This document shows positions 6,133-28,514 of a stretch of 32,000 nt of DNA, piece after piece. The position numbers and the translations under genes are program-made. The notes under the pieces are model-generated. The model ran no database searches and was not told the DNA's origin. It worked only from the letters and a program-made list of their open reading frames with translations. Within the stretch, counting starts at the first letter, position 1, and every line of letters starts with the position of its first letter. The stretch comes from Candidatus Scalindua sp. (GTDB lineage Bacteria; Planctomycetota; Brocadiia; Brocadiales; Scalinduaceae), in assembly GCA_031316235.1 (NCBI GenBank), contig JALDRA010000001.1, positions 1,020,001 through 1,052,000 of the forward strand, read 5' to 3'.

Positions 6133-6161
6133 ACTGAAAATTACCCCCTTTACATAGTAAT

Positions 6162-6206: not shown

Positions 6207-6313
6207 ATATAAGTATATATCAAACGATACAACTACCAACATAGTCAAAGATTATCACACATGAATCATTAATGCAAGAGAAAATAATATTTTGTCAAGC
6301 AAAAAGAGAAATG

Positions 6314-6425: not shown

Positions 6426-6527
6426 CAAGAATTATTTCACATACTATAAGATTCAGAGTAATACCTAAATTTATTCCCCTCATCTTTTGAATTTAACAAT
6501 TTACAAAATAATAATAAATGGTACTAT

Positions 6528-9538: not shown

Positions 9539-9589
9539 AATATAATGGATCCCGCAATAAGGTGATATGTTCTGCAGATGCAGATATTT

Positions 9590-10144
9590 TCAAGCAGGTA
9601 TTTTTTTTGCAATACCCAGTTTCATCTTCTGATAACGGACAAACAGTTTCCCCTGCTTAATATCTGTTTCAAGGGTATCCATTCTGCGCGGAGATGGCCC
9701 CGAGATAATCTCGCCCTTGATATCAAAATAACTATCGTGGCAGGGACAGACAAATCTCCCCGAATCCTTATCCCAGTCTATCCCGCAACCGAGGTGAGGA
9801 CATATTACCGAAAAGGCCGTAACTGTTTCATCCTCTCCTCGAACCAGCCAGACTGCCCCAATTACCGTTTCCGGGTATTTGGTCCATGCATCCCTGCGCG
9901 AATCCCTGACCGCCACTTTCCTGGGCACGTTGATCTGGCACCCCCGTATGTCTCCAACCTCCACCAGACCCGATGAACTAATCACCGTCTTCTTCAGTGC
10001 GGGACTTATAAAGGCCCGTATGAGCGGTATGCTGTACGCAATACCGATCAGCGACGCAAGAAAGACAGAACAGACCTTGAGAAAGGCCCGCCGGCCGCTT
10101 CCACTCCCGTTTAACTCTTCCTTCCTGCCAGATTCCTCTTTCAT
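9590..10144 (-). CDS. Rieske [2Fe-2S] protein of a cytochrome bc-type complex
   Basis: 184 aa with a twin-arginine signal (SGRRAFLK), then a TM helix. Cluster-binding boxes are CPHLGC and CPCHDS. Confidence 0.9.
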   Translation of the reverse strand: MKEESGRKEELNGSGSGRRAFLKVCSVFLASLIGIAYSIPLIRAFISPALKKTVISSSGLVEVGDIRGCQINVPRKVAVRDSRRDAWTKYPETVIGAVWLVRGEDETVTAFSVICPHLGCGIDWDKDSGRFVCPCHDSYFDIKGEIISGPSPRRMDTLETDIKQGKLFVRYQKMKLGIAKKIPA

Positions 10145-10243
10145 ACTTCAAACCCCCTGCAAGTCAGTGCTTCCCCCGGAAAAATAACTGCACTCTTGTC
10201 AATTGGAAATATACCGTTCAAACTCACGATTTCCGTTTAACCG

Positions 10244-10534
10244 CTATTTAATCACCTTCAGCGAATTGGTATACTCGCCTACTTTCCAGAAATCGTACGA
10301 CTCGTACTTGATCCCCGCCTTATCTTCCAGCGTCTTTAAACGTCTCAGCTTACTGGCTTCGGATTTTATCCGTGCCAGCGATTGATCCTGCTTGAAGGCC
10401 CCCAGCTCGTATGTCTGGAAGTTTGGAGACATATGAAAGGCTGCTTTGTAGACTGTCGTTCCATGGTAGACGAGCATGTCAAAGAATTCCCGCTCTATCG
10501 CGGTAACATTGTACATACGCCCCCCAGGTTCCAC
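10244..10534 (-). CDS. C-terminal fragment of the octahaem HAO-like protein (frame-shifted)
   Basis: RMYNVTAIEREFFDMLVYHGTTVYKAAFH...IKSEASKLRRLKTLEDKAGIKYESYDFWKVGEYT is colinear with the C-terminus of the paralogue at 14262-15842 (RFYNVSDIERMAIEMIVYQVTAVYKAAFH...IKSEASKLRRISTIEKEVGIEHKAYDFWKHGEYT). Confidence 0.8.
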   Translation of the reverse strand: MEPGGRMYNVTAIEREFFDMLVYHGTTVYKAAFHMSPNFQTYELGAFKQDQSLARIKSEASKLRRLKTLEDKAGIKYESYDFWKVGEYTNSLKVIK

Positions 10535-11586
10535 TTGTGCCCCTGGTCAAGGTGCGGCGCAAGATCCTTGGGCATCGCGTCAAGAAGACCCTCTTCATGC
10601 AGATCTTCAATAACAGCCCTCGCCTCTCTTACTTTTGTATGGCTCACTTTTACCGTCTCGTCAGCGCCTCGTAAATATGCGGCCGCAAACCGGGCTGAAT
10701 GACAGTCATTACAGATATTCGTCCACGCTTTCCTTTTCTCTGCAAAATCTTCGGCCCCACGATCAACTTCTTCAACCCCCATATGGGAGTACACCGCATT
10801 TTCAACGGCATTATGTGTCCCATTATACATGTGGCAGTAAGCGCACGTCGGCGCACGGTAGTTACCCACCTTCAGCGGTTTGTCCCAATCCCACCTGTCT
10901 CCGTCAATCGCCGTAATAACTCCGTGTGCCGATGTGTTATAACACTCGGTATCACGATGGTCAGGGCCATTATGGCAGTAGGAACAGGCCTCTGGACGCC
11001 TCGCTTCGGCTGCCTTGAAGCGGTGTCTGAAATGGCAGGAATCACATTTGTTTTCAATCGAATGGCACTGTGCACAGCCGGCGACCTCTGGTTGAGGCTT
11101 GCTGATCTGCCACTCCGATTCAACTACGTCCGGATGAAATGCCCTGGCATGTGAAGGATGACCCGTTTCCCTCTCAGATTTAAAATCTTCAACTTGCTCA
11201 GGGTGGCATTTCGCGCAGATGTCCGGGGTTGGCATCTGGATCTTCTGATGATCAGAGCCATGGCATTTATCACAGGTAACATCTGCTGCGCTATGGGCAC
11301 TCTCTTTCCAGTCAATCGCAATCCTCGGTGTAGTCAGGGAATGACAATTAACACATTTCTCCCCTTCAAAGACACCTTCTATTTTGTTGTCAGGCTCAAA
11401 ATAGTGCCCCGGATCCCACCAGCGGAACATCTCAATCGGTTTCCAGTGTTTGCCCCATTTCCCTTCACCTTTTGTCAACTTTCCAAGTAATCCTTCCGCT
11501 TGAAGAGAGACAGGACAGAAAAACTGGCAGGAAGTCATCATGCAGATAAAAAAGAACAAAAATATTTTCTTTACAGGTGAATTCAT
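10495..11586 (-). CDS. Octahaem hydroxylamine-oxidoreductase-like cytochrome c, N-terminal major fragment (frame-shifted at 10520-10525)
   Basis: Eight CxxCH motifs: CVNCH, CDKCH, CAKCH, CAQCH, CDSCH, CSYCH, CAYCH, CNDCH. The likely true start is ATG 11586, with GGGGAGGG 6 nt upstream and signal peptide MNSPVKKIFLFFFICMM.... Adding one G to the G6 run restores ...HKWNLGGRMYNVTAIE.... Confidence 0.85.
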   Translation of the reverse strand: MNSPVKKIFLFFFICMMTSCQFFCPVSLQAEGLLGKLTKGEGKWGKHWKPIEMFRWWDPGHYFEPDNKIEGVFEGEKCVNCHSLTTPRIAIDWKESAHSAADVTCDKCHGSDHQKIQMPTPDICAKCHPEQVEDFKSERETGHPSHARAFHPDVVESEWQISKPQPEVAGCAQCHSIENKCDSCHFRHRFKAAEARRPEACSYCHNGPDHRDTECYNTSAHGVITAIDGDRWDWDKPLKVGNYRAPTCAYCHMYNGTHNAVENAVYSHMGVEEVDRGAEDFAEKRKAWTNICNDCHSARFAAAYLRGADETVKVSHTKVREARAVIEDLHEEGLLDAMPKDLAPHLDQGHKWNLGGVCTMLPR

Positions 11587-11944
11587 TAACAACCCTCCCC
11601 TTTTTTTCGTGTTGGTTTTAAGTATCAACAATATAATAAGCTCGTTGTTACCACTGTAATAATGATAACCCGAAATCAATAAAAAAACATATCAGCTTGG
11701 TCCATCGAGGTAAATTTATTCTACCCGTTCCAATGAGAGACTCTCTCAAAATTGTCAGGTTTTCGACCCGCATGCGATATTCAGGCGGAAAGGCACGAGT
11801 GGCAGGCAGTCACTGATTGACCGGGTAACGGTATCCAGCTTGTCACTTAACCCTATTTTTTGAACCTGTCCTCCCGGAAGACTCCGCTGGGACGGGTCCG
11901 ACTATTCCGTTCAGGTGGCTACGCAGACACACAAATAAAGACGG

Positions 11945-14261: not shown

Positions 14262-15842
14262 TCAATGCGCTGGTTCATCAAAGCAAGGATGATCTCCATG
14301 CCTACACTCACTCTTAGGAAGAACGTCACCTTCTTTTCTCTTCCAACCAGTCAGCAAGTCAGTGTACTCACCATGTTTCCAGAAATCATAAGCCTTATGC
14401 TCTATACCAACCTCTTTCTCGATGGTTGATATCCTTCTGAGCTTAGAAGCCTCTGATTTAATCTCAATGAGTTTTCTATCCATTGGGAACGCACCTGCGT
14501 TATAAGAAACATCATCAATTGCAAAATGGAATGCAGCCTTATAAACAGCAGTTACCTGATAAACAATCATCTCAATTGCCATTCTCTCAATGTCCGACAC
14601 ATTATAGAACCTTGGTGAACCACCCGGTAACAAACTGAGTGTATGCCCACCGGTCCAGTCAGGTGCCAAATCAGCTGGCATTGGATCAAGCAATCCTTCA
14701 AGATACAAGCCTACAATGATGTTAACAGCTTCACGCCACTTAGTAAAACTGATATGAATCTGTTCGTCAGCAGCACTTAATTGCTCTTCAGCAAAACGTG
14801 GAGAGTGACACCCTTGACATCTCTTTATCCAGGCGTCTCTCTTAGATTTATATCTCGGAGCACCTTTATCTACCTGGAACATACCCATGTGATTATACAC
14901 AGTGGAAACAGCCTGGGTATTGTGATTACCCTCTTCACCCATGTGACAATATGCACAGGTAGGAACACGGTAATTTTTCGGAGTCATCTTCTGTTCCCAA
15001 TCCCATGTATCACCTTCCATCATCAGAATTTTACCATGATATGAGTTGTAATAAAACTCATATTCAGCATGGTCTACACCCATATGGCAAACACCACATG
15101 TTTCAGGCTTCCTGGCTTCTGACTGTTTGAACTGGTGCCTTGTGTGACATCCATCACATCTGTTTGATACAATACCGTGACACTGTGCACAGCTGGCAAC
15201 CTCTTCACCAGGTTTTCCAATCTGCCATGCAAACTCATTTACCTCAATATGCCAAGCATGAGCATGTGAACCCAAGCCACCGGTAATATGATCAGCTCTC
15301 TGCTGTACATGACATTTTCCACAGACACCATGATCAGGCATAACTAATTGCTGATGATTATTTCCATGACAGGCATCACAACCAACAACCTGCTCTTTAT
15401 CCATGTCTGAAGTCTTTCCACCTTTGAAATGCTTACTTGCTTTCCAATCAACTACTATCCTAGGAGTTTGAATAGTGTGACACAATACACACTCTTCCGT
15501 CTTAAACTCACCCTCAACCTTTTGAGTTGAAACATAGTAATGGGCTGGGTCGTAGTACATTGCAGTTACGGGTAAGAAATAGAATATATTTTTGAACTTA
15601 CCTTCACCTGGCATCACTTCATCAGGTCCAGTGTATTTCGCGGTAAGACCGAAAACATAAACTTCACCGCTGTCATCTGGCCCGACTGCCTGGCCAAAAA
15701 TGGAAGATGCAACATCCTGAAATGTTGGTGCAGCTTCATCTGCGTTTGCTTTTGAACTGAATCCGGCCGTTACAACCGTGCAGGTGGCAACTAAAGCAAA
15801 AATGGCCGTACATATTGCGTATCTCCGTGCAAATTGAATCAT
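14262..15842 (-). CDS. Octahaem hydroxylamine-oxidoreductase-like cytochrome c (HAO family paralogue)
   Basis: 526 aa with signal peptide MIQFARRYAICTAIFALVATCTVVTAGFSSKANA. Eight canonical CxxCH motifs: CVLCH, CDACH, CGKCH, CAQCH, CDGCH, CGVCH, CAYCH, CQGCH. AAAGGAGAA lies 7 nt upstream of the ATG. Confidence 0.9.
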   Translation of the reverse strand: MIQFARRYAICTAIFALVATCTVVTAGFSSKANADEAAPTFQDVASSIFGQAVGPDDSGEVYVFGLTAKYTGPDEVMPGEGKFKNIFYFLPVTAMYYDPAHYYVSTQKVEGEFKTEECVLCHTIQTPRIVVDWKASKHFKGGKTSDMDKEQVVGCDACHGNNHQQLVMPDHGVCGKCHVQQRADHITGGLGSHAHAWHIEVNEFAWQIGKPGEEVASCAQCHGIVSNRCDGCHTRHQFKQSEARKPETCGVCHMGVDHAEYEFYYNSYHGKILMMEGDTWDWEQKMTPKNYRVPTCAYCHMGEEGNHNTQAVSTVYNHMGMFQVDKGAPRYKSKRDAWIKRCQGCHSPRFAEEQLSAADEQIHISFTKWREAVNIIVGLYLEGLLDPMPADLAPDWTGGHTLSLLPGGSPRFYNVSDIERMAIEMIVYQVTAVYKAAFHFAIDDVSYNAGAFPMDRKLIEIKSEASKLRRISTIEKEVGIEHKAYDFWKHGEYTDLLTGWKRKEGDVLPKSECRHGDHPCFDEPAH

Positions 15843-16179: not shown

Positions 16180-18597
16180 TTATCTCCTTGAATATCCAGG
16201 ATATGGATCTGGTCCCTGAATATTATCCCACTGTGCACCCAAATCTACCCACTCAACAAACAGGTATCTTTCTTCAGGAGTCAGGATTTTGTTATGCATT
16301 ACCCTGCCTTCTAGTGGGAAGGTGTTATCACTTGTTGCAAACTGTGATAATGGTTCCTCATAGAGCCTCCAGATAAGAGGGCTATTGATAGCAGCACTTG
16401 GATTCACGTATCTACCACCAATGTTCTTATCCTTACCCTGCAGAGGTGCCAGCAAGCTGTTGTAAGAACTGCTGAAGGCAGCAATCCCATCAACAGAAAC
16501 CAGCTTTGTGCTACCGGCGAGATTAGGTGCCTGCCCAGAGCTATGGCAGCTGGCACATTTTGCATCAATTAATGGCTGAATGTCTCTTCTGAAATCGACT
16601 GTTCTGAGTTTGTCAATATTCAAACCTTCAACCTTCTGTGATGTCGTACCAGAAGCACCACCGTAGTAAACGTCAGCTGGTACAACAACGTCTTCACCAT
16701 GCTTTACCCCGGCGTATTTACCATTCTTATCAATTCTGACATTCGCCCACATAAATGGCGAATCGTAATGGCTTAAATCACTATACCACCAGTTGTAAAG
16801 AGCTTTCGAATGGATATTCTTATACCCCCTCTTGTCATATGAACCCCAGTGGCATCCAGTACAGATTCTCCCACCATAAGGCCTTACATATGCCCATGAA
16901 AGCTGCGTCTGAACTGCCATGCCATTCTCATCAAGGATCTGAGCACAGTATGGCTCATCTCCGGGATGTGAGCTTACAACAGAACCATCATCTTCAACGT
17001 ACTGATAACCAAACATACGTCTCTGAGTAAACATGGTACCTGAGTTACTACTTGTTCTTTCACCACCAAGCAGGTGCCTACCTGCACCAACGATAAACCT
17101 GGAAGAATCCGGTTCTTTTGTCTCGATAGCGTTCAGCGTTCGAATCGCTTTCACATCACCATGCTTCATCTCCTTGGCCCTCTGATGCGGATATGGACCA
17201 ATTGGAAGATTAGTCAAGGTAGTATCAAAACAGATAGTAGTACTCCAGGAGTGCGGATATCCTTCGACGTTCACCTGATCAAAAGGCTGGTACGTCACCG
17301 TGGTAACACCAAATTCTTTACCAGCAGTAAAAGAGTTAATCCATCTTGGTTTATAACGAGGATATACTGGCTGTGGCTGATGATCGTTCCACTCAGGATC
17401 ATCATAAACCTTCTCACCGACGGTTCCCTTGCTTGCATCAAACCAAAACAGGCCGAAATCCTGTCTCTCTGAAGATGAAACCATCAACCTTCCATCTGGC
17501 ACAGGGAATGGACTCCTGTAAAGCCTCCCATCATTATTAAGTCTTGATTGAGTCTTGGCATGAGGAGTCGTCCAGCTAACCCTTGCAAGATTTCCAACAC
17601 CTGAATTGTAATCCAAGGCCTCAATATAATACAGATATCCGTCCACAGCTTCCCTTGCCTGAATTTTAGCAGTGTGTGGCTGCTCAGAACACTCATTACC
17701 ATAAATATGCCTTGGATATGATCCATCCCAGTTATCAACTATGAGACAGACACTTCCTTTACCCCCAGCCCGTGGCCCATTTGCCTGTGTACTGCTGAAC
17801 ATAATATTTCCGTCACGAGTTAAAGCTGGATCAAAATCAGAACTTACATTATAGGTAATCCTGTCAGCAACAGAATTTGTGCTCGGCATATCGATACCCA
17901 TAAGTTTGTGACCACAGATTCTGTCCATCATGTTTCCACCCTGCGGATCAAGCCTGTAGAGGCTGTACGAGTAATTATTATAATACTCATCCATAGCGTC
18001 TGCAGGTGAGTATGTGATGATCAAGAAGCCAGTTTTCTCAACTTCTCCTCTCACTTTCCAGTCACCTTCAAAATACCTGTCTCGTGAGATAACCCTGCCT
18101 TTACCAGACTCTATGGCACCGGCCGCATAATAGATCGGGCTCCTTGCTGTACCAGGCAAATCAGTCAACTGCCTTACACCGGAACCATCAATATTCATTT
18201 CCCAGATTTGACATCCACCACCGTTTTTATGAACACCGGCAAATGCAACTCTTGAGCAATCCCAATTTAGGCAGGGATCAAAAGCGCTCTGAAAATCATT
18301 TGTTAAAACCTGCACACTTCTTGTTTTCATATTATATGAAACTATCCTGCTATTATTGGAAACATAGTTCGGATATTGATGATACGGATCACCAGCACTT
18401 GTAGGCTTCGACTGAGTGAAGATAACAGAGTCAATATTCCCCTGTATCTCCTTTGACATACCCCAATAGTCACCCCAAATAGCCTTACCCGGCTGGTGAC
18501 CACCTACCATTACCTGTGCCTGGCAAGTTGAACCTAAAAGTCCACTTATTGCCACAGCACCAGCTAACGCCATTGTCGCAAAAAATCCCTTTTTCAT
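16180..18597 (-). CDS. hzsA: Hydrazine synthase alpha subunit
   Basis: 805 aa from ATG 18597 (GGAAAGGAGA upstream), with signal peptide MKKGFFATMALAGAVAISGLLGSTCQAQV. A long haem-free N-terminal region is followed by two CxxCH motifs (CTGCH, CASCH) in the C-terminal third. It is the last gene after hzsB-hzsC. Size, haem layout and synteny match my recollection of kuste2861. Confidence 0.9.
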   Translation of the reverse strand: MKKGFFATMALAGAVAISGLLGSTCQAQVMVGGHQPGKAIWGDYWGMSKEIQGNIDSVIFTQSKPTSAGDPYHQYPNYVSNNSRIVSYNMKTRSVQVLTNDFQSAFDPCLNWDCSRVAFAGVHKNGGGCQIWEMNIDGSGVRQLTDLPGTARSPIYYAAGAIESGKGRVISRDRYFEGDWKVRGEVEKTGFLIITYSPADAMDEYYNNYSYSLYRLDPQGGNMMDRICGHKLMGIDMPSTNSVADRITYNVSSDFDPALTRDGNIMFSSTQANGPRAGGKGSVCLIVDNWDGSYPRHIYGNECSEQPHTAKIQAREAVDGYLYYIEALDYNSGVGNLARVSWTTPHAKTQSRLNNDGRLYRSPFPVPDGRLMVSSSERQDFGLFWFDASKGTVGEKVYDDPEWNDHQPQPVYPRYKPRWINSFTAGKEFGVTTVTYQPFDQVNVEGYPHSWSTTICFDTTLTNLPIGPYPHQRAKEMKHGDVKAIRTLNAIETKEPDSSRFIVGAGRHLLGGERTSSNSGTMFTQRRMFGYQYVEDDGSVVSSHPGDEPYCAQILDENGMAVQTQLSWAYVRPYGGRICTGCHWGSYDKRGYKNIHSKALYNWWYSDLSHYDSPFMWANVRIDKNGKYAGVKHGEDVVVPADVYYGGASGTTSQKVEGLNIDKLRTVDFRRDIQPLIDAKCASCHSSGQAPNLAGSTKLVSVDGIAAFSSSYNSLLAPLQGKDKNIGGRYVNPSAAINSPLIWRLYEEPLSQFATSDNTFPLEGRVMHNKILTPEERYLFVEWVDLGAQWDNIQGPDPYPGYSRR

Positions 18598-18710
18598 AAG
18601 TTGGGAGTCTCCTTTCCTCTCGTATATAAAATTACACAATTTAATAATTTCTCAATTATTTCTGAAATCCATAGCCCCTATTTTGGAGGCTATCTGATCA
18701 GTAAAACACC

Positions 18711-19736
18711 TTAAAGAGCCTTCATAAACTCAACAAGGTCCTGTAATTCCTGATTACTCAGATGCGATGTAACACCATGCATATCCTTTGTTGTAACGGA
18801 GTTATCAATCGTATCCATCAGAGTCTCAGCACTGCCATCATGGAAATAGGTACCGGACGCATAGATATCCCTCAATGTCGGGGTATCAAATTCCTTTACC
18901 AGATCCAATCCGATAATCGGCACATCATAATCCTCACCATATGGATCAACTCCTTTTTCCAACGCTGCGGTATTGAATACCTCACCTGGTGTCGTCCTGA
19001 ATCCATCCCTTCCTACCCTTCCGGTTCCAACGTCATGAGTCTGAGCATCACTGAACAGTGCCCTTGGGTTGTTAGGATCTCCCGGATGGCACTCAATGCA
19101 TCCCACCTTCGGATCACTGAAAACCTTCCAGCCTCTCTTTTGAGCCTCGGTCATCGATCCATCTGCATTGCGGAAAGGACTACCCGTAAACTCTAAAGAA
19201 CGGATGTAAGCAACCAATGCCTCCAGTCTTTCAGGCGAGAAGTTCTCACTTCTGAACACAAATCCAGGGTCTCGTCCGCATACCCTGTCGATTGATGATG
19301 TAGCACCTACGATCTCATCAGGATGACCCGTAAATCCTTCATGCCTGAATGGAGGGAGGTACCTTCCGCCACGGATGTACTTCGTATTCTTCCAGCTGCC
19401 CCAGCCTTCATCACCAAGATCCCAGATCAGACCTGTTGTCTGACCTCTCTCATAGTGACAGCTTGCACATGAGTACTCACCCTGTAAAGTCCATGAATTC
19501 TCATTAAACTGAAATTGTCCATACCTTACCAGTTCGCTCTTGTAAGGTGAATGCTTCACCCTGTAATGCACCTCAGGGACAGTCAACGGCTCTCCTCTTT
19601 CCAATGGAGCCCATTCCGGCCCTGTCTGTATAGTCGCTATAACCTGAGCCTCTCCTGCATCAGCAAACTTCACAGTTGCAGTCAGGCAAAAAAGACACAG
19701 GGTAGCAATTAAGCTCAACACAAACATCTTCCTCAT
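18711..19736 (-). CDS. hzsC: Hydrazine synthase gamma subunit (dihaem, cytochrome c peroxidase/MauG-like)
   Basis: 341 aa from ATG 19736, with a perfect AGGAGG 6 nt upstream and signal peptide MRKMFVLSLIATLCLFCLTATVKFADA. Two CxxCH motifs (CASCH, CIECH). The longer listed ORF, which overlaps hzsB, is an upstream extension without an SD. Confidence 0.9.
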   Translation of the reverse strand: MRKMFVLSLIATLCLFCLTATVKFADAGEAQVIATIQTGPEWAPLERGEPLTVPEVHYRVKHSPYKSELVRYGQFQFNENSWTLQGEYSCASCHYERGQTTGLIWDLGDEGWGSWKNTKYIRGGRYLPPFRHEGFTGHPDEIVGATSSIDRVCGRDPGFVFRSENFSPERLEALVAYIRSLEFTGSPFRNADGSMTEAQKRGWKVFSDPKVGCIECHPGDPNNPRALFSDAQTHDVGTGRVGRDGFRTTPGEVFNTAALEKGVDPYGEDYDVPIIGLDLVKEFDTPTLRDIYASGTYFHDGSAETLMDTIDNSVTTKDMHGVTSHLSNQELQDLVEFMKAL

Positions 19737-19798
19737 TACCAACCTCCTAAAAAAAACAGTTAAAGTTAAATACTCAAAAAACCCCAGCCATACAATAA

Positions 19799-20935
19799 TC
19801 AATCAAGCGGAGTCCTGATTACGGATACATTATTCGAAAAATAGTTCGCAGCATAACATATCTTACCATCCGGAGACAGCGCAACTGAACTTGGCCCGAG
19901 TCCTACATTCACCCTCTTCACCAGGTAGTCTACCATAATCGTAAGATCATCCTTCATCTCATCCAGCTCATCCTGTGAGCTGGTCTGGATGATCTCTGTC
20001 ATCTTACCCAGATCAAGAATAGTAACCCTGTGCATACCCCTTACACCGATGTACACATATTTACCCTCTGGACAGATTGCGATTCCATAGGGATTACCAT
20101 CGTAATTGTTGTGCTCATCGAGTGGAAACTGTGCAACTTTACCGCCAGCCCTCGTCTCAACCATTGCAACATTGTTTGAGAAAATCTGGGCATTTTCAGC
20201 CTCGCAGACAGGCAGCCAGTTCTTTGGCTGTTCCATCGTAAAGAGAACGTACTTACCATCAGGAGTATACTCAACGCCCCTGAAGTTGGCGCTACCGGGT
20301 ACTACCCTTGTCTCAGTAACCCTGCCTGTTGCAAGGTCAATGAAATCAACGCACCTGTTTATTTTGCCCGTCGTATCAAGAACAACCGCGGCTTTCTTCC
20401 CGTCAGGAGATATCGCTATATCCCTTGGACCATAGTCAGATGTCCTGATCTCACCGATTTTGTTGTTCATTGCTGTATCAATGATATCAACAGTGTTCCA
20501 CATACTTCCTGAGCAGCACACATATGCCTTCGAACCATCCTTAGACAGCTTTATGCTGCATGGCCAGTCGCCAACTTTGATGGTCTTTATTACTGCCTTG
20601 GTGCCCACATCAATGATGGAAACTGAATCACTTTCAGCGTTACATACATACAGCGTTCTCCCATCTTGAGTACATACCGTTGCTTCCGGCTGTACCTGAA
20701 CAGGCACTTCACCGGTAACTTTCCTTGTTCTCGTATCAACAAAAGTCACACTGTGGCCTGACTGATTTGCAAGAAACAACGTACCGCCATCAGGAGAAAC
20801 CGATACGTGAAACGGGGAAGGATGTTCAGTCCTCACCCTTGTACCCTGAATAAAACCGGCACTGGCACTTTGAGATATCGCCAGAGATACCAAGCCGGCC
20901 CCGAGGATACTCCAAAATAAACTCCCTTTTTTCAT
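19799..20935 (-). CDS. hzsB: Hydrazine synthase beta subunit (haem-free beta-propeller)
   Basis: 378 aa with signal peptide MKKGSLFWSILGAGLVSLAISQSASA and no CxxCH. It has repeated YVTN-type blades (DGGTLFLANQSGHSVTFVD, DGRTLYVCNAESDSVSIID, DGSKAYVCCSG..VDIID, DGKICYAANYFSNNVSVI). AGGAGGTG lies upstream of the ATG. Confidence 0.9.
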   Translation of the reverse strand: MKKGSLFWSILGAGLVSLAISQSASAGFIQGTRVRTEHPSPFHVSVSPDGGTLFLANQSGHSVTFVDTRTRKVTGEVPVQVQPEATVCTQDGRTLYVCNAESDSVSIIDVGTKAVIKTIKVGDWPCSIKLSKDGSKAYVCCSGSMWNTVDIIDTAMNNKIGEIRTSDYGPRDIAISPDGKKAAVVLDTTGKINRCVDFIDLATGRVTETRVVPGSANFRGVEYTPDGKYVLFTMEQPKNWLPVCEAENAQIFSNNVAMVETRAGGKVAQFPLDEHNNYDGNPYGIAICPEGKYVYIGVRGMHRVTILDLGKMTEIIQTSSQDELDEMKDDLTIMVDYLVKRVNVGLGPSSVALSPDGKICYAANYFSNNVSVIRTPLD

Positions 20936-20971: not shown

Positions 20972-21559
20972 TTAGAAACTCGGAACATGTGGACACTCAC
21001 CCGACTTCTTGCAAACAGTCTCCAGTGGTTTCCCACACTCCTCACAACTGCCAGGGTCTACCAACGTAGGGATATACTCGACCTTTTCATCAAGTTTATG
21101 CCCTCTCCCTGGATGCTCAAAGGTCTTACCACAACCCGTACATTTAAAATCAATCTTAGACCAGACTTTCTTACTGTCTATATCGCCCATGCATACTTCA
21201 CAACCACCCGGATTAGGCATACACTTTTCATATGCCTCACACTCCTTCTCGATACAGCTGAATTTGATCCTTTCACAGCCCCAGGCCTCAGGAAGATCCT
21301 GATGTTTTTTCGCTTCATCATACTCCTCAGAACCAGATTCATATTTCTTAAAGTCCCAGATGTAATTAATATTTTTACAGTCTTTAAACTCGTTAATTTC
21401 CTTACATATCGGACAATAATAATGCAACTGAATCTTTTTTTTCGGACATTCACCCTCAGCATATACCGAGCTCACCTGACCAACTGCCAGATTTACCAAA
21501 AACATGCAAGCAAATATTGCAATGACAAGACGTCCCATCCTTCTTTTTACTGTAAACAC
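20972..21559 (-). CDS. Secreted cysteine-rich protein (multiple CxxC knuckles), first gene of the hzs transcription unit
   Basis: The mature part has 16 Cys, including CPIC, CEVC, CTGC and CEEC pairs, and no CxxCH. The signal peptide is (MFTVKRR)MGRLVIAIFACMFLVNLAVGQVSSVYA. The start is either GTG 21559 (AGGGGGTGA 4 nt upstream) or ATG 21538. The ORF-track start at 21661 lies upstream of the promoter. Confidence 0.7.
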   Translation of the reverse strand: MFTVKRRMGRLVIAIFACMFLVNLAVGQVSSVYAEGECPKKKIQLHYYCPICKEINEFKDCKNINYIWDFKKYESGSEEYDEAKKHQDLPEAWGCERIKFSCIEKECEAYEKCMPNPGGCEVCMGDIDSKKVWSKIDFKCTGCGKTFEHPGRGHKLDEKVEYIPTLVDPGSCEECGKPLETVCKKSGECPHVPSF

Positions 21560-21635
21560 TTCTTCACCCCCTTTCACAACAAAAAAACGTTCTCGAATTA
21601 AAACCAAAATCAATTCAGACATTTTCTCAAGAGTT

Positions 21636-21651
21636 AGCAGAAAGCATGCCA
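21636..21651 (-). promoter_or_regulatory. Sigma54 (-24/-12) promoter upstream of the Cys-rich gene and hzsBCA
   Basis: The minus strand reads TGGCATGCTTTCTGCT, against the consensus TGGCACG-N4-TTGCW. The GG-N10-GC spacing is exact. It lies about 75-100 nt upstream of the first start codon and 180 nt downstream of the stop of a sigma54 activator gene. Confidence 0.6.
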
Positions 21652-21832
21652 AAAGCGGCATCTAATTTTTTGTACTCTAAACCTAAACATACTAAAATCT
21701 TACAAAATTTTCTTTCTATCGTAAACATCAGTATTAAAAGAATGTCGCGGCGCAAATAAGCCATAGCATTCGATAAACCGCCAGCACACCAAACCTACCA
21801 GAAGCCCTGCATATTGTCAATAGTTTTATAAA

Positions 21833-23224
21833 TTAATTGCTACCATATTTTTCCAACCGATACCTCAGTGTCCCACGTGTCAAACCCAGCATTTTCGCAG
21901 CTTTTGTTTTATTATTATTACTTTTTTTCAGGGCCTGTAATACAATCGTTTTCTCAACTTCTTCAAGGCAAATACCCTCCGGAGGTATTTCAAAATCAAT
22001 CGAAACCTCCTTTTTTCCCTTATCACCACACTTACCATTCGAATTACCCTGCTTCGTAAGGTTTAAAGGCAGATGCTCTTCATGTATCGTATCCCCCTTA
22101 CACAAAATCACCGCCCTCTCTATACAATTCTTTAACTCCCTAATGTTACCTTCCCAGACATTTGAGATGAGCAGCTTTTCAGCATTCCTTGAGATTTTCA
22201 TGAGGCATTTACCCATTTTGACTGAGTAGCGCTCGATGAAGGTATTTACCAGAGAAATAATATCCTCTGATCTTTCACGAAGAGGTGGTATTTGGATTGG
22301 AAATACGTTGATTCGGTAAAAGAGGTCCTCTCTGAAGTCCCCTTCTTTTACAAGCTGTCCAAGGTCTTTATTGCTTGCACAGATAATTCTCACATCTACC
22401 TTCACTGTTTCTGAACCCCCGAGCCTTTCCAGCTCCCTTTCTTCAACGACCCTCAATACCTTTGCCTGGATAACAGGATTCATCTCAGAAATTTCATCTA
22501 GAAAAAGAGTCCCCCCATTAGCTAATTCAAATCGACCTTTTTTGCTCTTTTCAGCACCAGTAAAAGCCCCTTTTTCATAACCAAACAATTCACTCTCTAA
22601 CAGATTTTCCGGCAGGGCTGCGCAATTTATCGTAACCAACGGTCCACTCTTTCGAAGACTATTGAAATGAATAGCCTTGGCAACCAACTCCTTCCCGGTT
22701 CCACTTTCACCATAAATCGAAACAGTAGAGTCTGTCCTTGATACATCGCCTGCCAACAAAAGAACTTCAAGCATTTTGGGAGAGTTGGTAATGATAGTCC
22801 CAAAATTGTAATGCGACTCTAATTCGTTGCGCAGGTATCTATTTTCAATTGTAAGAGATCTAATCTTAATAGCCTTTTTAATCGCAACAGCCAGAGCATC
22901 CCCCTCAAAAGGTCTGGGGATATAGTCAAATGCCCCCTCCTTCATCGCCTTAACCGCTATTTCCACGGAGTCATCTCCGGTAATAATAATGACCGGCAGT
23001 TCCGGATCCTTCGATTTTAAACGCCTCAAGAATTCAAGACGACCAATCCTGGGTGACCTCAGATCGGTTATAACCAAATGCACTCTTTCGCAGTTGATAA
23101 AATCTAATATTGACAATTCACTCTGCACTTTAACAAGTTCTACACCTGCCACTTCTTCAAGAATAACCCCAATATTTCGGATCATCCGCTCTTCATCATC
23201 AGCTACCAGTACCCTACTTTTCAT
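21833..23224 (-). CDS. Sigma54-dependent response regulator (NtrC family enhancer-binding protein)
   Basis: 463 aa. The receiver domain has VLVADDEE...VITDL. The AAA+ domain has Walker A GESGTGKE and the sigma54-contact loop GAFTGA. The C-terminal Fis-type HTH is KTKAAKMLGLTRGTLRYRLEKYG. Confidence 0.95.
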   Translation of the reverse strand: MKSRVLVADDEERMIRNIGVILEEVAGVELVKVQSELSILDFINCERVHLVITDLRSPRIGRLEFLRRLKSKDPELPVIIITGDDSVEIAVKAMKEGAFDYIPRPFEGDALAVAIKKAIKIRSLTIENRYLRNELESHYNFGTIITNSPKMLEVLLLAGDVSRTDSTVSIYGESGTGKELVAKAIHFNSLRKSGPLVTINCAALPENLLESELFGYEKGAFTGAEKSKKGRFELANGGTLFLDEISEMNPVIQAKVLRVVEERELERLGGSETVKVDVRIICASNKDLGQLVKEGDFREDLFYRINVFPIQIPPLRERSEDIISLVNTFIERYSVKMGKCLMKISRNAEKLLISNVWEGNIRELKNCIERAVILCKGDTIHEEHLPLNLTKQGNSNGKCGDKGKKEVSIDFEIPPEGICLEEVEKTIVLQALKKSNNNKTKAAKMLGLTRGTLRYRLEKYGSN

Positions 23225-23279: not shown

Positions 23280-24164
23280 TCAGCAACAAAGTGTTACCAG
23301 AGAACAAATCAGCGAAGCGAGCATAAATCCAACAATGAGCAGACCGACAACAAGAAACGGCAGCCCCATTATTTTTGAAACAAGGCTCCCGCCACAACCC
23401 GCTGGCCTGACTCTCAGAGCTTCCAACTCACCATTTTCCTTCAGCCTCTCATAATAAGCACCTCTCTCGTGAGACATATGCTCTTCAGAAATCCGTCCCG
23501 TAAACATCGCCTCGTCAACCGGCATATTTTCCGGGAGCAAATGGGTGTGAAAAAAATGGATCGTAAAGATAAAACCTGCCGCCAGCAAAGCCTCGTACCT
23601 GTGTGCCACCAGGGCCAAACTTGGCAGATCAATGATACTGGCAAGATTAACCGGCACCAGGCTGGTTGCCTGCACCGGAAACCAGAGGACAAAACCTGTA
23701 GTTGCCATGACAAATGTGCCCCACATAAGCGACAGATACTCCATTTTTTCCCAGTAAATCCACCTATCATAATTAGGACGGCTTCCCAAACGGAAAAACC
23801 ATAAAACATCACCCAAAATATTAAGCAAATCTTTCGGCTGGATCAACAGGGAATCAGGCCCCCAGAAAATGCCCCTGTCCTTCTTAACCAGTGTCTGCAC
23901 CGAAAGGAAAGCAAAATGTAAAAAGGCAGCAAAAAATGTAATCAACGCACAGATTCTATGTATTATACCAGCAGTTGGATACCCACCCATAACTCCATAT
24001 AACCAGTGCGCCCAGCCATAATCCTTAAAGACGAGAGGCATACCCGTTAAAACCAAGCCAAAAAAACTGATAATAACGAGAAAATGACTAAACCTGTGAA
24101 ACAAGCTAAACCTTAAAAAATGACTATCACTTGCCATGTTTTGATTCCTTTCCCTTACGCTCAT
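23280..24164 (-). CDS. Cytochrome-b-like integral membrane protein (FdnI / Ni-hydrogenase cyt b type), putative quinol-oxidising subunit
   Basis: 294 aa with 5-6 hydrophobic helices carrying conserved His (FHRFSHF, IIHRICALITFFAAFLHF, VAHRYE, IHFFHTH). It overlaps the upstream haem gene by 38 nt; the alternative start ATG 24137 overlaps by 11 nt. Confidence 0.75.
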   Translation of the reverse strand: MSVRERNQNMASDSHFLRFSLFHRFSHFLVIISFFGLVLTGMPLVFKDYGWAHWLYGVMGGYPTAGIIHRICALITFFAAFLHFAFLSVQTLVKKDRGIFWGPDSLLIQPKDLLNILGDVLWFFRLGSRPNYDRWIYWEKMEYLSLMWGTFVMATTGFVLWFPVQATSLVPVNLASIIDLPSLALVAHRYEALLAAGFIFTIHFFHTHLLPENMPVDEAMFTGRISEEHMSHERGAYYERLKENGELEALRVRPAGCGGSLVSKIMGLPFLVVGLLIVGFMLASLICSLVTLCC

Positions 24165-25122
24165 CTAATATAGTAGCCAGCCATGTAAGGACTGAATGCA
24201 TACCAAAACCAGAAAATGTCATTACCAAAATACCCACATACATCACAAATAAAATCGTAATAAGCGTCTGAGGACTCTTCACAAGCCCTGCTACCTTCTC
24301 CCGATCACTACGAATATCTTTAACTGCCCCAACGATCGTCTTATAATAATTTATATTCTTATATTGCGGATGCGCAACATGTTTTACAAAAGTGCTGTTT
24401 GCACCTGGATGGCAAGTACCGCATGTCTCTATAAGATTCTCAGAACCCACTGTTGACTCAGGGTCAGATGAATTTAAAATCTTGTGCTGACCATGACAAT
24501 CAACACAGGTCGCTATATCTGTGCCGACATACCCCAGTGCTGTAACCTGACCGTGCAGATTATTACGGTACGAATTAAAAAACTCCTCATGACACCCACC
24601 ACACTTATCGATCGTATCTTTTCTATGTGACAGATCGTCAGCTCTCGGGACATCACGTTTTGATTTAAGTCCGGCATGGCAGTACTTACAAGTCGGAGGC
24701 TGAATATCATTTTCCTTCATCAGCGCCACATGGCTACTTTCAAGAAATTCCTCAGCCGGATCATCATGGCAAAATGTTATGCAATCAACTGGTTGTAAAT
24801 TTGGATAATGCTCCCCCTCCGACTCCTCAAGATCCGCATGACAATCAATACAATAGAAATCTTCACCTCCATGAGCAGAAGCGTGAAAGGCCTCTTCGTC
24901 AACCAGCATGGATACTATTTCAACCTCGCCTGTTACATGGTCCACCCTCACCTTAACATCAACTTTAGAGGGATCAGTATGGCAATCCAAGCAATCATTA
25001 TTTTCTTGAGCATGAAGACAGTATGAAGAAACAGCGGAAATGAGAACAGCAAGGAACGCTACAAAAAGAAACCTCACCGCTTTATTATTGACAGCTCCAC
25101 AAGTGCTGAGAATGGATGCCAC
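24127..25122 (-). CDS. Heptahaem cytochrome c with C-terminal membrane anchor
   Basis: 331 aa from a GTG start, with AAGGAGGGA 8 nt upstream. Six CxxCH motifs (CLDCH, CIDCH, CKYCH, CGGCH, CVDCH, CGTCH) plus one CxxxCH (CITFCH, 24766-24783). It has an N-terminal signal and the C-terminal helix LITILFVMYVGILVMTFSGFGM. Confidence 0.85.
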   Translation of the reverse strand: MASILSTCGAVNNKAVRFLFVAFLAVLISAVSSYCLHAQENNDCLDCHTDPSKVDVKVRVDHVTGEVEIVSMLVDEEAFHASAHGGEDFYCIDCHADLEESEGEHYPNLQPVDCITFCHDDPAEEFLESSHVALMKENDIQPPTCKYCHAGLKSKRDVPRADDLSHRKDTIDKCGGCHEEFFNSYRNNLHGQVTALGYVGTDIATCVDCHGQHKILNSSDPESTVGSENLIETCGTCHPGANSTFVKHVAHPQYKNINYYKTIVGAVKDIRSDREKVAGLVKSPQTLITILFVMYVGILVMTFSGFGMHSVLTWLATILDERKGKESKHGK

Positions 25123-25424: not shown

Positions 25425-26171
25425 TCAATGCTTCGCATTACTTGGTTTTGTCTGAAACAGTGGATCTTTCTCAATATACCCTTTCCACTTATTCTTATCC
25501 ACCGTCGGCAATACATCATCGATAGGATCGTGGTCTCTATGATCGTCAAGTTTAAAATATTTTTTAAAGTCCATGACTATAGGCTTGCCAGTCTCCTTGT
25601 CATTGCCAGCCTTTGGACACTTATTTTTATCATTTGCGTCTTCCCAATGACACTCCAGACACTGCTCTCTAATAGTGTCATATTTGTTAATACCAGCCAC
25701 AATCAGCCCGGCATCAAACTGTACCTTCCTCGCCATCATCGGGTCTTCTTTCAGAAGATTCTTAAAAGCATCTTTTCCCTTTTTGTTGTAATTCTTTTTT
25801 ACATCAACATATGCTTCCCCTGGACCGTGACACGCTTCACAGGTAACATTCTCCAGAAAATCACCATATTTGGATTTCCCTTTTTTAATCTTCATACCAT
25901 ACGCCGTTGCATGACACCTCAAACACTCTGGATTTGTCTTCTCTTCATCGGTCACCAACCTCTTATTAAATGTTTTCGAATGCAATCTCGCCTTATACTC
26001 TTCACCCTCAAAACACCCCTTCGACAAATGGCACTTACAGCCAGAATTACTCATATACTTGTATTTCTGCTTATCAGCCCCAAAACTTTGAGACCCCTGA
26101 AAAACAAAGACCGACGATACGACCACTACAGCAAAAACTATCAAAAACGCTCTCAAGCTGCGACTCAACAT
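25425..26171 (-). CDS. Trihaem cytochrome c (cytochrome c554-like multihaem family)
   Basis: 248 aa with signal/anchor MLSRSLRAFLIVFAVVVVSSVFVF. CxxCH motifs are CLRCH, CEACH and CLECH, plus an odd CKCH at 26028-26039. The antisense 301-aa ORF (25296-26201) is rejected. Confidence 0.85.
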   Translation of the reverse strand: MLSRSLRAFLIVFAVVVVSSVFVFQGSQSFGADKQKYKYMSNSGCKCHLSKGCFEGEEYKARLHSKTFNKRLVTDEEKTNPECLRCHATAYGMKIKKGKSKYGDFLENVTCEACHGPGEAYVDVKKNYNKKGKDAFKNLLKEDPMMARKVQFDAGLIVAGINKYDTIREQCLECHWEDANDKNKCPKAGNDKETGKPIVMDFKKYFKLDDHRDHDPIDDVLPTVDKNKWKGYIEKDPLFQTKPSNAKH

Positions 26172-26433: not shown

Positions 26434-27783
26434 TCACTCCTTCTCATTTAAGAGTTTTTCAACAAAAAGTGTGTCAATATCACCACTTAAAAACCGTGAA
26501 TCGGATATAATTTTCATATGAAGAGGTATTGTCGTCTTTACCCCCTCAATCTTATATTCACTTAACGCCCTTTTCATGCAGGCAATTGCCTCTTCTCTCG
26601 TTTTTTGAAAGACAATCAATTTACCTAAAAGCGAGTCGTAGTACGGAGGAATCTCATAACCTGAATAAATATGAGAATCCAACCGTACACCCAAACCACC
26701 CGGAGGGGAGCACATTGAAATCCTCCCAATTGATGGACGAAAATCGTTATCAGGATCTTCCGCATTAATTCTGCACTCAATTGAAACACCCTCTCTTTTC
26801 ACTTTTTTCTGTCGCAGATTAAGCCTCTCCCCATATGCAATCCTCAACTGCTCCTTTACAAGGTCAATACCTGTCACCATCTCTGTTACCGGATGCTCAA
26901 CCTGAAGCCGTGTGTTCATTTCAATAAAGTAGTAGTTCTCATCCCTATCTACCAGAAATTCAACAGTTCCGACACTTGCATATTTAACCGCTTTTGCCAG
27001 TCGTGTTGCCGCTTTACAGATTTCTTCACGTAATTGATTTGAAATATTCGGTGACGGAGCCTCTTCCAGGAGTTTCTGATGCCTCCTCTGGATGGTACAG
27101 TCCCGCTCTCCCAGATGCAGAACATTTCCATATTTGTCTGCGACGATCTGTACTTCAATATGCCGCGAATGCTCCACATATTTTTCCAAATAGATCGAAG
27201 AGTCCTTAAATGCAACCTCTGCCTCACGTTGTGCAATCGCAAACGAATTAACCAAACTGATATCATTATGAGCAACCCTCATCCCCCTTCCACCTCCCCC
27301 GAAAGAGGCCTTTAATAAAACGGGATAGCCCAACTCATGTGCAACTTCCACCGCGTGCTGCTGATTCCTTAATGCCGAATCGCTACCAGGGATAATGGGA
27401 ATCTTATTCTCACTTGCTATCTTCTTCGCTATAGTCTTATCACCCATTTTTTTCATGACATCCGAAGGTGGTCCAACAAAAACGATATTGGAAGATTCGC
27501 AAACTTCAGCAAAATGGCTATCTTCTGCTAAAAAACCGTACCCCGGATGGATAGCTTCTATATCCGTAATCTCAGCCGCGCTTATAATGCTTGGAATGTT
27601 CAAATAACTTTCCGTGGCATCAGCAGGGCCAACACAAACCTGAGCATCTGCAAATTTTAAATAGAGTGCTTTTTCATCAGCCTTAGAGCATATAGCAACC
27701 GTTTCAATACCCAATTCTTTACAGGCACGAATAATGCGCAATGCTATCTCACCTCTATTTGCAATTAAAATCCGCGAAAACAT
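26434..27783 (-). CDS. accC: Acetyl-CoA carboxylase, biotin carboxylase subunit
   Basis: 449 aa with MFSRILIANRGEIALRIIRACKELGI, GGGGRGMRV, and EMNTRLQVEHPVTE. Confidence 0.95.
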   Translation of the reverse strand: MFSRILIANRGEIALRIIRACKELGIETVAICSKADEKALYLKFADAQVCVGPADATESYLNIPSIISAAEITDIEAIHPGYGFLAEDSHFAEVCESSNIVFVGPPSDVMKKMGDKTIAKKIASENKIPIIPGSDSALRNQQHAVEVAHELGYPVLLKASFGGGGRGMRVAHNDISLVNSFAIAQREAEVAFKDSSIYLEKYVEHSRHIEVQIVADKYGNVLHLGERDCTIQRRHQKLLEEAPSPNISNQLREEICKAATRLAKAVKYASVGTVEFLVDRDENYYFIEMNTRLQVEHPVTEMVTGIDLVKEQLRIAYGERLNLRQKKVKREGVSIECRINAEDPDNDFRPSIGRISMCSPPGGLGVRLDSHIYSGYEIPPYYDSLLGKLIVFQKTREEAIACMKRALSEYKIEGVKTTIPLHMKIISDSRFLSGDIDTLFVEKLLNEKE

Positions 27784-28058
27784 TCTCCCCTTGCTTTCCT
27801 ATTTTTTACCCGTTCCACAGGAAGTCTACAAGACTCGCCCATTTATATTAGAATAAATAAGAGACCCCACAACACAAGAAATGATTACAAACAGGATTTG
27901 TTTGACAGACTGACATGAAAAGCAGAATGGAAAAAACCTATCACAAAGCATTACAACTTTAACCTGTTAACCTCTGCAATACAAGCGAAGTCCGCCTCAC
28001 ACCTAAATGGGCTGCATTACCAGGCACAAGGAGTCCTGCCTGGATACTCAGCATAAAC

Positions 28059-28514
28059 TCAACCATCCGCATGCAAATCAATAATAAAAAGCGGTTGCCC
28101 GAACTCAACAGCATCTCCATTTTCAACCAGAGTCTCGATAACTTTTCCCTTAGCCTCAGCCTTAATCTCATTCATAATCTTCATCGCTTCAATAATGCAA
28201 ACAACAGTTTCACCATCAACCATATCCCCTACTCCTACATACGGTTCCGCCCCCGGAGCGCTACTGTAATAGGTACCTACCATGGGAGCAACAATTTCTG
28301 AAAAACTGTCACTTTTTTTCGCAGGAAGATATTTTGTAGTCCCCTCCTGCAGTGGAACATGAAGAGCAGTAGACATATGAACGTTAGCAGGCGTGGAGTT
28401 TATATCACTTTTTTTAAGACGGATCTTCGTGGCTTCTTCCTCTATCTCAATCTCAGCAAGATTGTTCTCGTTCATCAAAGATATTAGATTTTCTACTTTT
28501 TCTATGAGGTCCAT
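28059..28514 (-). CDS. accB: Acetyl-CoA carboxylase, biotin carboxyl carrier protein
   Basis: 151 aa with a C-terminal biotinyl domain carrying EAMKIMNEI. AGGTGGGA lies upstream of the ATG. Confidence 0.9.
   Translation of the reverse strand: MDLIEKVENLISLMNENNLAEIEIEEEATKIRLKKSDINSTPANVHMSTALHVPLQEGTTKYLPAKKSDSFSEIVAPMVGTYYSSAPGAEPYVGVGDMVDGETVVCIIEAMKIMNEIKAEAKGKVIETLVENGDAVEFGQPLFIIDLHADG

Follow-up and report, generated by a model that had tools for sequence, protein, structure and literature searches.

In the 32,000-nucleotide stretch of DNA from a Scalindua-type anammox bacterium analyzed here (the window), the minus-strand sequence TGGCATGCTTTCTGCT at positions 21651-21636 is very likely a functional sigma-54 promoter. 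It would drive a unit comprised of a gene for a Cys-rich secreted protein and the hydrazine synthase genes hzsB, hzsC and hzsA, and it would depend on an NtrC-family sigma-54 activator, enhancer-binding protein 1 (EBP1), encoded directly upstream. The window carries a complete hydrazine synthase supercluster on its minus strand, in the order trihaem cytochrome c, heptahaem cytochrome c, cytochrome b, EBP1, Cys-rich gene, hzsB, hzsC and hzsA. The same arrangement is found in Kuenenia as kuste2854-2861 (PMC12053348). The three cytochrome genes form the operon of the electron-transfer module (ETM), in which EBP1 is the last gene. The loci closest to the window come from Scalinduaceae metagenome-assembled genomes, in which HzsB is 94% identical.

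Anammox, whose signature enzyme is hydrazine synthase, is used in wastewater treatment and has been credited with as much as about half of the nitrogen lost from the oceans (PMC7438415). The hzs genes of Kuenenia are known to respond to substrate limitation (PMC7438415), and no published mechanism for this response was found in the open-access papers and bioRxiv preprints that we searched.

The -24/-12 element and its co-occurrence with the activator gene

The element is placed as follows.

21651-21636, minus strand: predicted sigma-54 promoter TGGCATGCTTTCTGCT, GG at 21650-21649 and GC at 21638-21637, GG-N10-GC spacing

It matches 10 of the 12 specified positions of the consensus TGGCACG-N4-TTGCW. 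A first-pass annotation, made from the sequence without database searches, had recognized the exact GG-N10-GC spacing; its count of 14 of 16 positions does not stand, since four N positions had been included. The same annotation had placed the motif about 75-100 nt upstream of the Cys-rich gene, in agreement with the 76 nt that separate its 3' end from the GTG start codon at 21559. The element is intergenic and lies on the coding strand; the predicted transcription start is near 21625, which would leave a 5' untranslated region (5' UTR) of about 66 nt.

Guided by an HzsB alignment, we retrieved 57 hzs loci from a bacterial genome set with one genome per species and added Kuenenia loci to them. 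The spacers upstream of the hzs units were searched by a criterion set beforehand (GG-N10-GC, at least 8 of 12 consensus positions, spacer coding strand), and the number of matches expected was obtained from shuffled sequences. Mapping of the window proteins onto the fetched loci revealed three architectures. Type A, with the gene order trihaem-heptahaem-cytochrome b-EBP1-Cys-rich-hzsBCA, is found in Scalinduaceae, Brocadia, Subterrananammoxibius, Kuenenia and the window. Type B has the same order without the activator gene and occurs in Anammoxibacter and in several groundwater or deep-branching Brocadiales lineages. Type C is a second hzsBCA copy that directly follows the gene of a paralogous activator, EBP2 (~43% identical to EBP1), and lacks the Cys-rich gene. 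Spacers with a -24/-12 element were distributed among them as follows.

Type A (EBP1): 23/24 spacers, 1.28 expected
Type C (EBP2): 13/13 spacers, 1.0 expected
Type B (no activator): 1/11 spacers, 0.5 expected

The -24/-12 element tracks the activator gene: it is kept with EBP1 and is missing without an activator, where a sigma-70 promoter is found instead. The sequence TTGAYN-N16-17-TATAAT precedes the Cys-rich gene in 8/11 type B spacers, versus 1/24 of type A and 0/13 of type C, and the sole type B match to the sigma-54 element falls within the spacer of a sigma-70 promoter. The conservation of the GG and GC elements in other anammox genomes, which the first-pass annotation had proposed to check, is thus borne out at the EBP1 loci, where the element lies 50-82 nt from the start codon throughout. 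In the alignment of 18 Scalinduaceae spacers, islands of conservation are formed by the GG, the TGC of the -12 region, the arms of an upstream dyad, a candidate second promoter (P1) and the Shine-Dalgarno sequence, the remainder having diverged. Type B loci fall in at least two separate clades of a rough HzsB tree; therefore the association between element and activator does not reflect one inherited event.

In the locus L034 (5821-6370), the activator gene is cut down to an in-frame remnant of its C-terminal helix-turn-helix (HTH) domain (ending in KNNKTKSAKLLGLTRGTFRYRLQKYGLLN and a stop codon). The -24 region is kept there (TGGTAC), the GC of the -12 region is now GT, and the genome retains an intact EBP2-type copy (L056). 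Decay of the activator here apparently went hand in hand with decay of its promoter.

The activator-less loci with a near-consensus sigma-70 promoter in the spacer between the cytochrome b and Cys-rich genes (L020, L022, L023, L024, L027, L028, L035 and L041) also share a 5' UTR motif, ACTGCCWG (typically AAACTGCCTGG), located 12-59 nt before the estimated gene start and absent from all EBP1-type spacers.

Candidate EBP1 binding site

The first-pass annotation had also suggested to look for an inverted repeat within 21652-21832. A dyad of the form TGGY-N8-RCCR is indeed present in this interval, within the range of 104-108 nt from the GG.

21763-21748, minus strand: candidate upstream activator sequence TGGCTTATTTGCGCCG (EBP1 dyad, TGGY-N8-RCCR)

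The 16-bp dyad is centered 105 nt upstream of the -24 GG, at about -130 from the predicted start. TGGY-N8-RCCR is the commonest dyad with 4-mer arms in the type A spacers, with seven perfect occurrences versus a null maximum of five. In degenerate form it is found 104-108 nt upstream of the GG in 20/24 type A loci and at 95 nt in one more, the other three holding near-misses; it occurs in 0/11 type B spacers. In the Kuenenia locus TGGCTGATAACTGCCG lies 104 nt upstream of TGGTATGAATTGTGCT, so that the spacing between dyad and GG is as in the window. The spacer between kuste2857 and kuste2858 is 257 bp long, and the start predicted for the Kuenenia locus L058 is at about 7347.

A composite search for the dyad and the -24/-12 element separated by 98-113 nt, carried out on both strands of 673 kb, returned 27 matches, of which 25 are located at the spacer between EBP1 and the Cys-rich gene. 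The remaining two lie inside coding sequence and look like chance matches. Apart from these two, the composite is absent elsewhere in the 673 kb, and no second nearby target of EBP1, such as autoregulation at the ETM promoter, was found by this search.

A further, partly conserved block, which might be an IHF-like site of DNA bending, lies between the dyad and the -24 region and corresponds to 21700-21665 on the minus strand of the window. Several Scalinduaceae species have AAGGCTTTCGTGCTAAATGGCTTACGTCAAATGTAT there, and the window has a weaker version.

Proposed mechanism and published expression data

The operon that contains the activator gene is preceded by a sigma-70 promoter, which the first-pass annotation had read as TTGACA-17-TAAAAT.

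26383-26355, minus strand: predicted sigma-70 promoter of the ETM operon, TTGACA at 26383-26378, 17-nt spacer, TG of an extended -10, TAAAAT at 26360-26355

This reading holds: 11/12 positions and the TG are matched, and nearly every anammox lineage examined has TTGACA-N14-TGnTAAAAT ahead of its trihaem gene.

The observations consist of the sequence elements themselves, the degree to which they are conserved, the constant distances between them and the fact that they occur together with the activator gene; the scheme set out here adds binding, looping, a start site and an activating signal, all of which we infer. The sigma-70 extended -10 promoter would transcribe the trihaem, heptahaem, cytochrome b and EBP1 genes as one unit. 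EBP1 dimers would bind the dyad TGGCTTATTTGCGCCG, about 130 bp upstream of the predicted start, through their Fis-type HTH domain. On activation the AAA+ domains would form a ring, which DNA looping would carry to the sigma-54 holoenzyme waiting in a closed complex at the -24/-12 element. ATP hydrolysis, acting through the GAFTGA loop, would then open the promoter, and transcription would begin near 21625. Such a mechanism is classical; what is new is its target and the defined elements.

Several published data sets are consistent with this scheme. The gene for sigma-54 is present in both anammox species considered: rpoN of K. stuttgartiensis is kuste3730, which is listed as expressed in the supplement of PMC7438415, and rpoN of S. 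profunda is scal02754, for which both transcript and protein were detected (PMC3655542, supplement). In the S. profunda transcriptome (PMC3655542) EBP1 mRNA has rank 14, and the trihaem and heptahaem genes have ranks 4 and 18; hzs transcripts are among the most abundant. The ranking of EBP1 with the ETM genes fits co-transcription from the conserved sigma-70 promoter, and agrees with the earlier proposal that the activator is co-expressed with the electron-supply module. For K. stuttgartiensis, PMC7438415 gives a level of 4,897 reads per kilobase per million (RPKM) for kuste2858, the counterpart of the Cys-rich gene, when nitrite is limiting and of 17,052 RPKM when ammonium is limiting; all hzs copies are also higher with ammonium limiting, by approximately two-fold. 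It follows that the unit is transcriptionally regulated, with its first gene expressed at hzs-like levels. Its mRNA is hzs-like, yet the values for kuste2858 in the table of PMC6423088 are ~100-fold below those of the hydrazine synthase subunits. PMC7438415 offers no mechanism for the response and never mentions sigma factors.

The presence of a sigma-54 regulator in the hzs cluster has already been published, namely kuste2857 (PMC12053348, PMC6423088 and the supplement of PMC3655542). PMC12053348 and PMC6423088 list this gene only as a cluster member, and no description of a promoter, binding site or target for it was found in the papers retrieved. No earlier description of the promoter, the EBP1 site, the EBP2-controlled second copy or the exchange of sigma-54 for sigma-70 between lineages was found in the literature searched. 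A mention of sigma-54 in a paper on an ammonium-sensor kinase of Kuenenia proved to be a citation only. Overall, the comparative evidence and the consistent expression data support the proposed wiring.

In this way the long-annotated sigma-54 regulator of the hzs cluster is turned into a testable model, in which the predicted promoter is placed with single-base precision, the candidate binding site spans 16 bp at a fixed distance from it, and a transcription start is predicted. A natural control group is provided by those lineages in which the activator was lost and a sigma-70 promoter is present instead. Anammox bacteria are not genetically manipulable; hence defined DNA elements are valuable, since they lend themselves to tests in vitro or in E. 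coli and also allow public RNA-seq data to be re-read for the predicted 5' end.

Evidence against the model and a probable contribution of sigma-70

A number of observations weigh against the assignment of a sigma-54 promoter. By the window alone, the motif is no better than chance: a scan with the full consensus (≤2 mismatches) gave three matches versus 4.0 expected, and the core TGGCA-N7-TGC gave one match versus 0.96 expected on both strands, this sole core match being TGGCATGCTTTCTGCT itself, intergenic and in the correct orientation. The -12 region here reads CTGCT, not TTGCW. The loci compared are related, so that the counts given above overstate the number of independent events. Alone among the EBP1-type loci, L015 of S. 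sediminis (~5630-5650) is without a valid GG, having TGTGCCATAATATGCT where its relative L016 has TGGCACATAATATGCT; promoter decay or an assembly error could account for this. No convincing terminator was found after EBP1, and transcription from P1, read-through from the ETM operon or both could supply much of the very high hzs transcription. The EBP1 receiver domain has lost its invariant Lys, as described below. Finally, no described hzs promoter, start-site mapping, rpoN-dependence, binding data or RpoN regulon in anammox bacteria was found in the open-access and bioRxiv literature.

The S. sediminis genome that contains L015 also holds an EBP2-type locus, L038, with two hzsB matches in tandem.

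For sigma-70, the spacer downstream of EBP1 contains a candidate promoter of its own.

21820-21792, minus strand: candidate second promoter P1, sigma-70-like with extended -10, TTGACA at 21820-21815, 17-nt spacer ending in TGG, TAGGTT at 21797-21792

P1 begins 12 nt after the EBP1 stop codon and lies upstream of the dyad. The pattern TTGACN-N13-15-TGnTAnnnT is present in 15/18 Scalinduaceae spacers, where the element can be written TTGACA-N14-TGnTAnnTT, and in none of the Brocadiaceae, EBP-less or EBP2 spacers. As P1 is conserved in Scalinduaceae, hzs expression is probably not exclusively sigma-54-dependent, and P1 probably supplies activator-independent transcription. The first-pass annotation had proposed that hydrazine synthase expression may be sigma-54-dependent; the conservation of the element with its activator speaks for such dependence, and the qualification is that hzs expression most likely has another source as well, with sigma-54 acting as a modulator.

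The stronger version of this argument would make P1 (21820-21792), read-through from the ETM operon, or both, the main source of hzs mRNA, with sigma-54 providing a conditional boost or with EBP1 on the dyad acting mainly as a roadblock to P1 transcripts. We regard it as possible, if on balance somewhat improbable. Besides the retention of P1 in Scalinduaceae and the lack of a convincing terminator, it is favored by the position of the dyad at about +22 to +37 from the predicted P1 start (near 21785) and by the abundance of hzs transcripts in S. profunda. In addition, the activator-less lineages run the same operon from a sigma-70 promoter, which means that sigma-54 is in principle unneeded for high hzs expression. 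However, the -10 hexamer of P1 in the window is weak (TAGGTT, 3/6 positions) and was missed by a generic promoter scan, and the EBP1 loci of Brocadiaceae and Kuenenia, which have no P1, still hold both the dyad and the -24/-12 element. A main role of sigma-70 would also leave the strict conservation of GG, GC and dyad spacing unexplained, and it would complement an EBP1-dependent sigma-54 promoter rather than exclude it.

The combination would resemble a well-studied system. The glnAp2 promoter of enteric bacteria is activated by NtrC from upstream dyad sites, and a tandem sigma-70 promoter, glnAp1, lies upstream. The hzs spacer is similar in having a dyad within the range of ~100-140 bp upstream of a -24/-12 element and, farther upstream, a candidate sigma-70 promoter. 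The two systems differ in several respects: glnAp2 serves nitrogen assimilation, whereas the target here is a catabolic hydrazine synthase; glnAp2 has a cluster of activator sites, whereas most hzs loci have one dyad; and EBP1 is encoded without a kinase or any equivalent of ntrB, with P1 confined to Scalinduaceae.

EBP1 and its activating signal

EBP1 comprises a receiver domain (PF00072, REC), a sigma-54 AAA+ domain (PF00158, E = 6.9e-70), an AAA lid (PF25601) and a Fis-type HTH domain (PF02954, HTH_8, E = 2.6e-15). The GAFTGA motif, Walker A (GESGTGKE), Walker B (LFLDEI), the R-finger (FREDLFYR) and the phospho-acceptor Asp54 are all present; among the 21 EBP1 sequences GAFTGA is intact in 18 and Walker A in all. 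The best matches in PDB, both over the full length, are the NtrC-family activators 4l4u and 1ny5 of Aquifex. EBP1 scores below the NCBIfam cut-offs for AtoC (the best, 464.9 versus 714) and NtrC (396.6 versus 558.6), and likewise for ZraR, NorR and NifA; it is a member of the NtrC family with no named equivalog among these five.

The first-pass description of a complete NtrC-type activator at 21833-23224 is confirmed for the domains, GAFTGA and Asp54, and needs correction for the receiver, which is a receiver by Pfam and not fully canonical. The acidic pair DD, Asp54 and Thr82 are present, and the invariant Lys is replaced by Arg104. In alignment with DctD and NtrC1, 6 of the EBP1 sequences have K at this position, 8 have R, 3 have N and 4 have T; by contrast, each of the 11 EBP2 sequences has K. 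Every EBP1 retains DD, Asp54 and the Thr/Ser position. The absence of a histidine kinase nearby, as noted in the first pass, was upheld: no HisKA or HATPase_c domain was detected by Pfam in 28 open reading frames (ORFs) of the window (26 of them ≥100 aa), and no histidine kinase gene is visible in the conserved flanks of related loci. Control of EBP1 by a remote histidine kinase is possible but uncertain, given a receiver in which Asp54 is retained and the invariant Lys is substituted by Arg. The earlier proposal of gating by phosphorylation is correspondingly weakened, and our confidence in it is much lower than in the promoter being functional.

These features leave room for an explanation in which EBP1 is not controlled by phosphorylation at all. 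With a degenerate receiver it would be constitutively active or would take its cue from something else, for instance a ligand, a partner protein or a redox signal, and the amount of EBP1, set by the ETM promoter, would decide hzs transcription. This is plausible without being probable. The variable Lys position (as opposed to its retention in EBP2), the lack of a kinase gene in the window and the unusually high abundance of EBP1 mRNA in S. profunda agree with it. The conservation of DD, Asp54 and Thr/Ser in every EBP1 argues in the opposite direction, as does the ENRxLRxE linker, which is similar to the one found in the DctD/NtrC1 class, where ring assembly is held in check by the receiver as long as it is unphosphorylated. 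Moreover, orphan response regulators with distant kinases are common.

Among characterized activators, DctD and NtrC1 and NtrC4 of Aquifex share the REC-AAA+-HTH architecture with EBP1; its receiver and its linker can be aligned with those of DctD and NtrC1. Unlike this subclass, EBP1 has Arg104 for the invariant Lys, at a position that varies among orthologues, and the dyad TGGY-N8-RCCR is particular to the EBP1 orthologous group. NorR and NifA are dedicated sigma-54 activators that are encoded beside the nitrogen-cycle operon they control and that sense through GAF domains. EBP1 likewise has its gene beside a nitrogen-cycle operon, as in NorR-norVW and NifA-nif, and differs in having a receiver domain instead of GAF. 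The orthologue of EBP1 in K. stuttgartiensis is kuste2857, which occupies the same position; the protein of the Kuenenia locus has 463 aa and the same flanking genes, including accB and accC.

Other explanations of the motif

It is very unlikely that TGGCA...TGC in the window is no promoter but the site of some other transcription factor, or an RNA structure or terminator in the 5' UTR of a transcript started upstream. A small inverted repeat, ATGCC-N6-GGCAT (21661-21646), overlaps the -24 element and was flagged as terminator-like in a scan, and the element would be transcribed if P1 were active. As a terminator or hairpin the repeat was rejected, its folding energy of -7.7 kcal/mol being no better than that of shuffled sequences (z = -0.16) and the repeat being absent in the closest relatives; an Rfam search of the window returned no match. 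The conserved positions are exactly the contacts of sigma-54 (GG and GC 10 nt apart, in TGGCAY and TGC contexts), the element occurs only where the gene of a GAFTGA activator adjoins, and it recurs independently at EBP2 loci amid unrelated flanks.

A functionless chance match is extremely improbable: within-window statistics could not exclude it, given ~1 core match and ~4 full-consensus matches (≤2 mismatches) expected per 32 kb, and it was discarded on cross-genome conservation, the element standing at the same position in 23/24 diverged orthologous spacers, at a fixed distance to the dyad, and being absent without the activator.

EBP2 and the second hzs copies

The second hzsBCA copies of type C (L003, L006, L013, L030, L032, L033, L037, L038, L040, L046, L049, L050 and L056) have their spacer upstream of hzsB at ~6500-7000 in most of the loci; no EBP2 gene was detected within the stretches that represent L013 and L050. 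Their element has the form TGGTAYR-N4-TTGCK and lies 170-300 nt upstream of hzsB. The EBP2 loci have a dyad of their own, TGACCA-N4-TrGTCw; as a rule there are two tandem copies, ~97 and ~176 nt away from the GG. The HTH recognition helix of EBP2 differs from that of EBP1, and its receiver is fully canonical. Distinct dyads together with distinct recognition helices form the pattern that would be expected if each paralogue reads its own site.

In three pairs of loci from within one genome (L036/L037, L045/L046 and L034/L056), the HzsB proteins of the EBP1-type and EBP2-type copies are almost identical in the rough tree, and their upstream regions are unrelated. This suggests that the enzyme genes, standing under two separate controls, have recently undergone duplication or gene conversion. 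One may speculate further that anammox bacteria route hzs control through sigma-54 by two inputs, with near-identical hzsBCA copies placed behind EBP1 and EBP2. EBP1, made together with the ETM and having a Lys-less receiver, might then report a signal that does not come from a kinase, such as electron supply or nitric oxide/ammonium status, and whole lineages might independently have swapped the circuit for a constitutive sigma-70 promoter. Taken as a whole, this extended picture is rather unlikely. If it were true, the response of the Kuenenia hzs genes to ammonium limitation would be the output of that circuit.

Genes of the locus and its surroundings

The genes of the supercluster in the window, all on the minus strand, are as follows.

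25425-26171, minus strand: trihaem cytochrome c gene, ETM subunit (kuste2854 position); Pfam Cytochrome_C554; synteny kept in related loci
24127-25122, minus strand: heptahaem cytochrome c gene, ETM subunit (kuste2855 position); Pfam multihaem c7/c3 families; synteny kept
23280-24164, minus strand: membrane cytochrome b gene, FdnI-like (kuste2856 position); weak NCBIfam match to formate dehydrogenase gamma subunit; synteny kept
21833-23224, minus strand: EBP1, NtrC-family sigma-54 activator, last gene of the ETM operon; starts 55 nt after the cytochrome b gene
21562-21575, minus strand: Shine-Dalgarno region GAAAGGGGGTGAAG of the Cys-rich gene; block nearly invariant in all loci
20972-21559, minus strand: Cys-rich secreted protein, 195 aa, GTG start (kuste2858 position); first gene of the unit driven by the predicted promoter
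19799-20935, minus strand: hzsB, beta subunit; NCBIfam hydrazine_beta, score 695.8, cut-off 560; 36 nt after the Cys-rich gene
18711-19802, minus strand: hzsC, gamma subunit; NCBIfam hydrazine_gamma, score 726.4, cut-off 625; 4-nt overlap with hzsB
16180-18639, minus strand: hzsA, alpha subunit; Pfam HZS_alpha

The start of the Cys-rich gene is assigned to GTG 21559, versus the mechanically listed ATG 21661, because the Shine-Dalgarno sequence GAAAGGGGGTGAAG precedes it and GTG or TTG start codons fall in one alignment column in 18 Scalinduaceae loci. A longer ORF from ATG 21661, which would span the motif, was ruled out by the homologues and by the start codons aligned at 21559. In the translated protein the N-terminus resembles a signal peptide and there are four CxxC pairs (CPIC, CEVC, CTGC and CEEC); no family in Pfam or NCBIfam was matched. 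Scalinduaceae have homologues of it, as do other anammox lineages, with 34-45% identity in the latter.

Directly upstream of the ETM operon lie accB and accC, which encode the biotin carboxyl carrier protein and biotin carboxylase (26434-28514 in the window, 736-2594 in the Kuenenia locus L058). As both loci have these genes, synteny reaches past the hzs supercluster across families.

Elsewhere in the window, no ORF of either strand exceeds 67 aa in the 1.3-kb interval 5160-6528 between the genes for an RRM-domain protein and a metallophosphoesterase, and Rfam gave no match there. Downstream of hzsA, the minus strand (7839-11679 and 14262-15842) encodes two HAO-like multihaem cytochromes (15842-14262 and 11679-10495), a Rieske protein, a c-type cytochrome and a cytochrome b whose gene is apparently split (9538-9032 and 8967-8584), with trpA/trpB-like genes interposed among the cytochrome genes. 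This region looks like a Rieske/cytochrome b module adjoining the hzs cluster.

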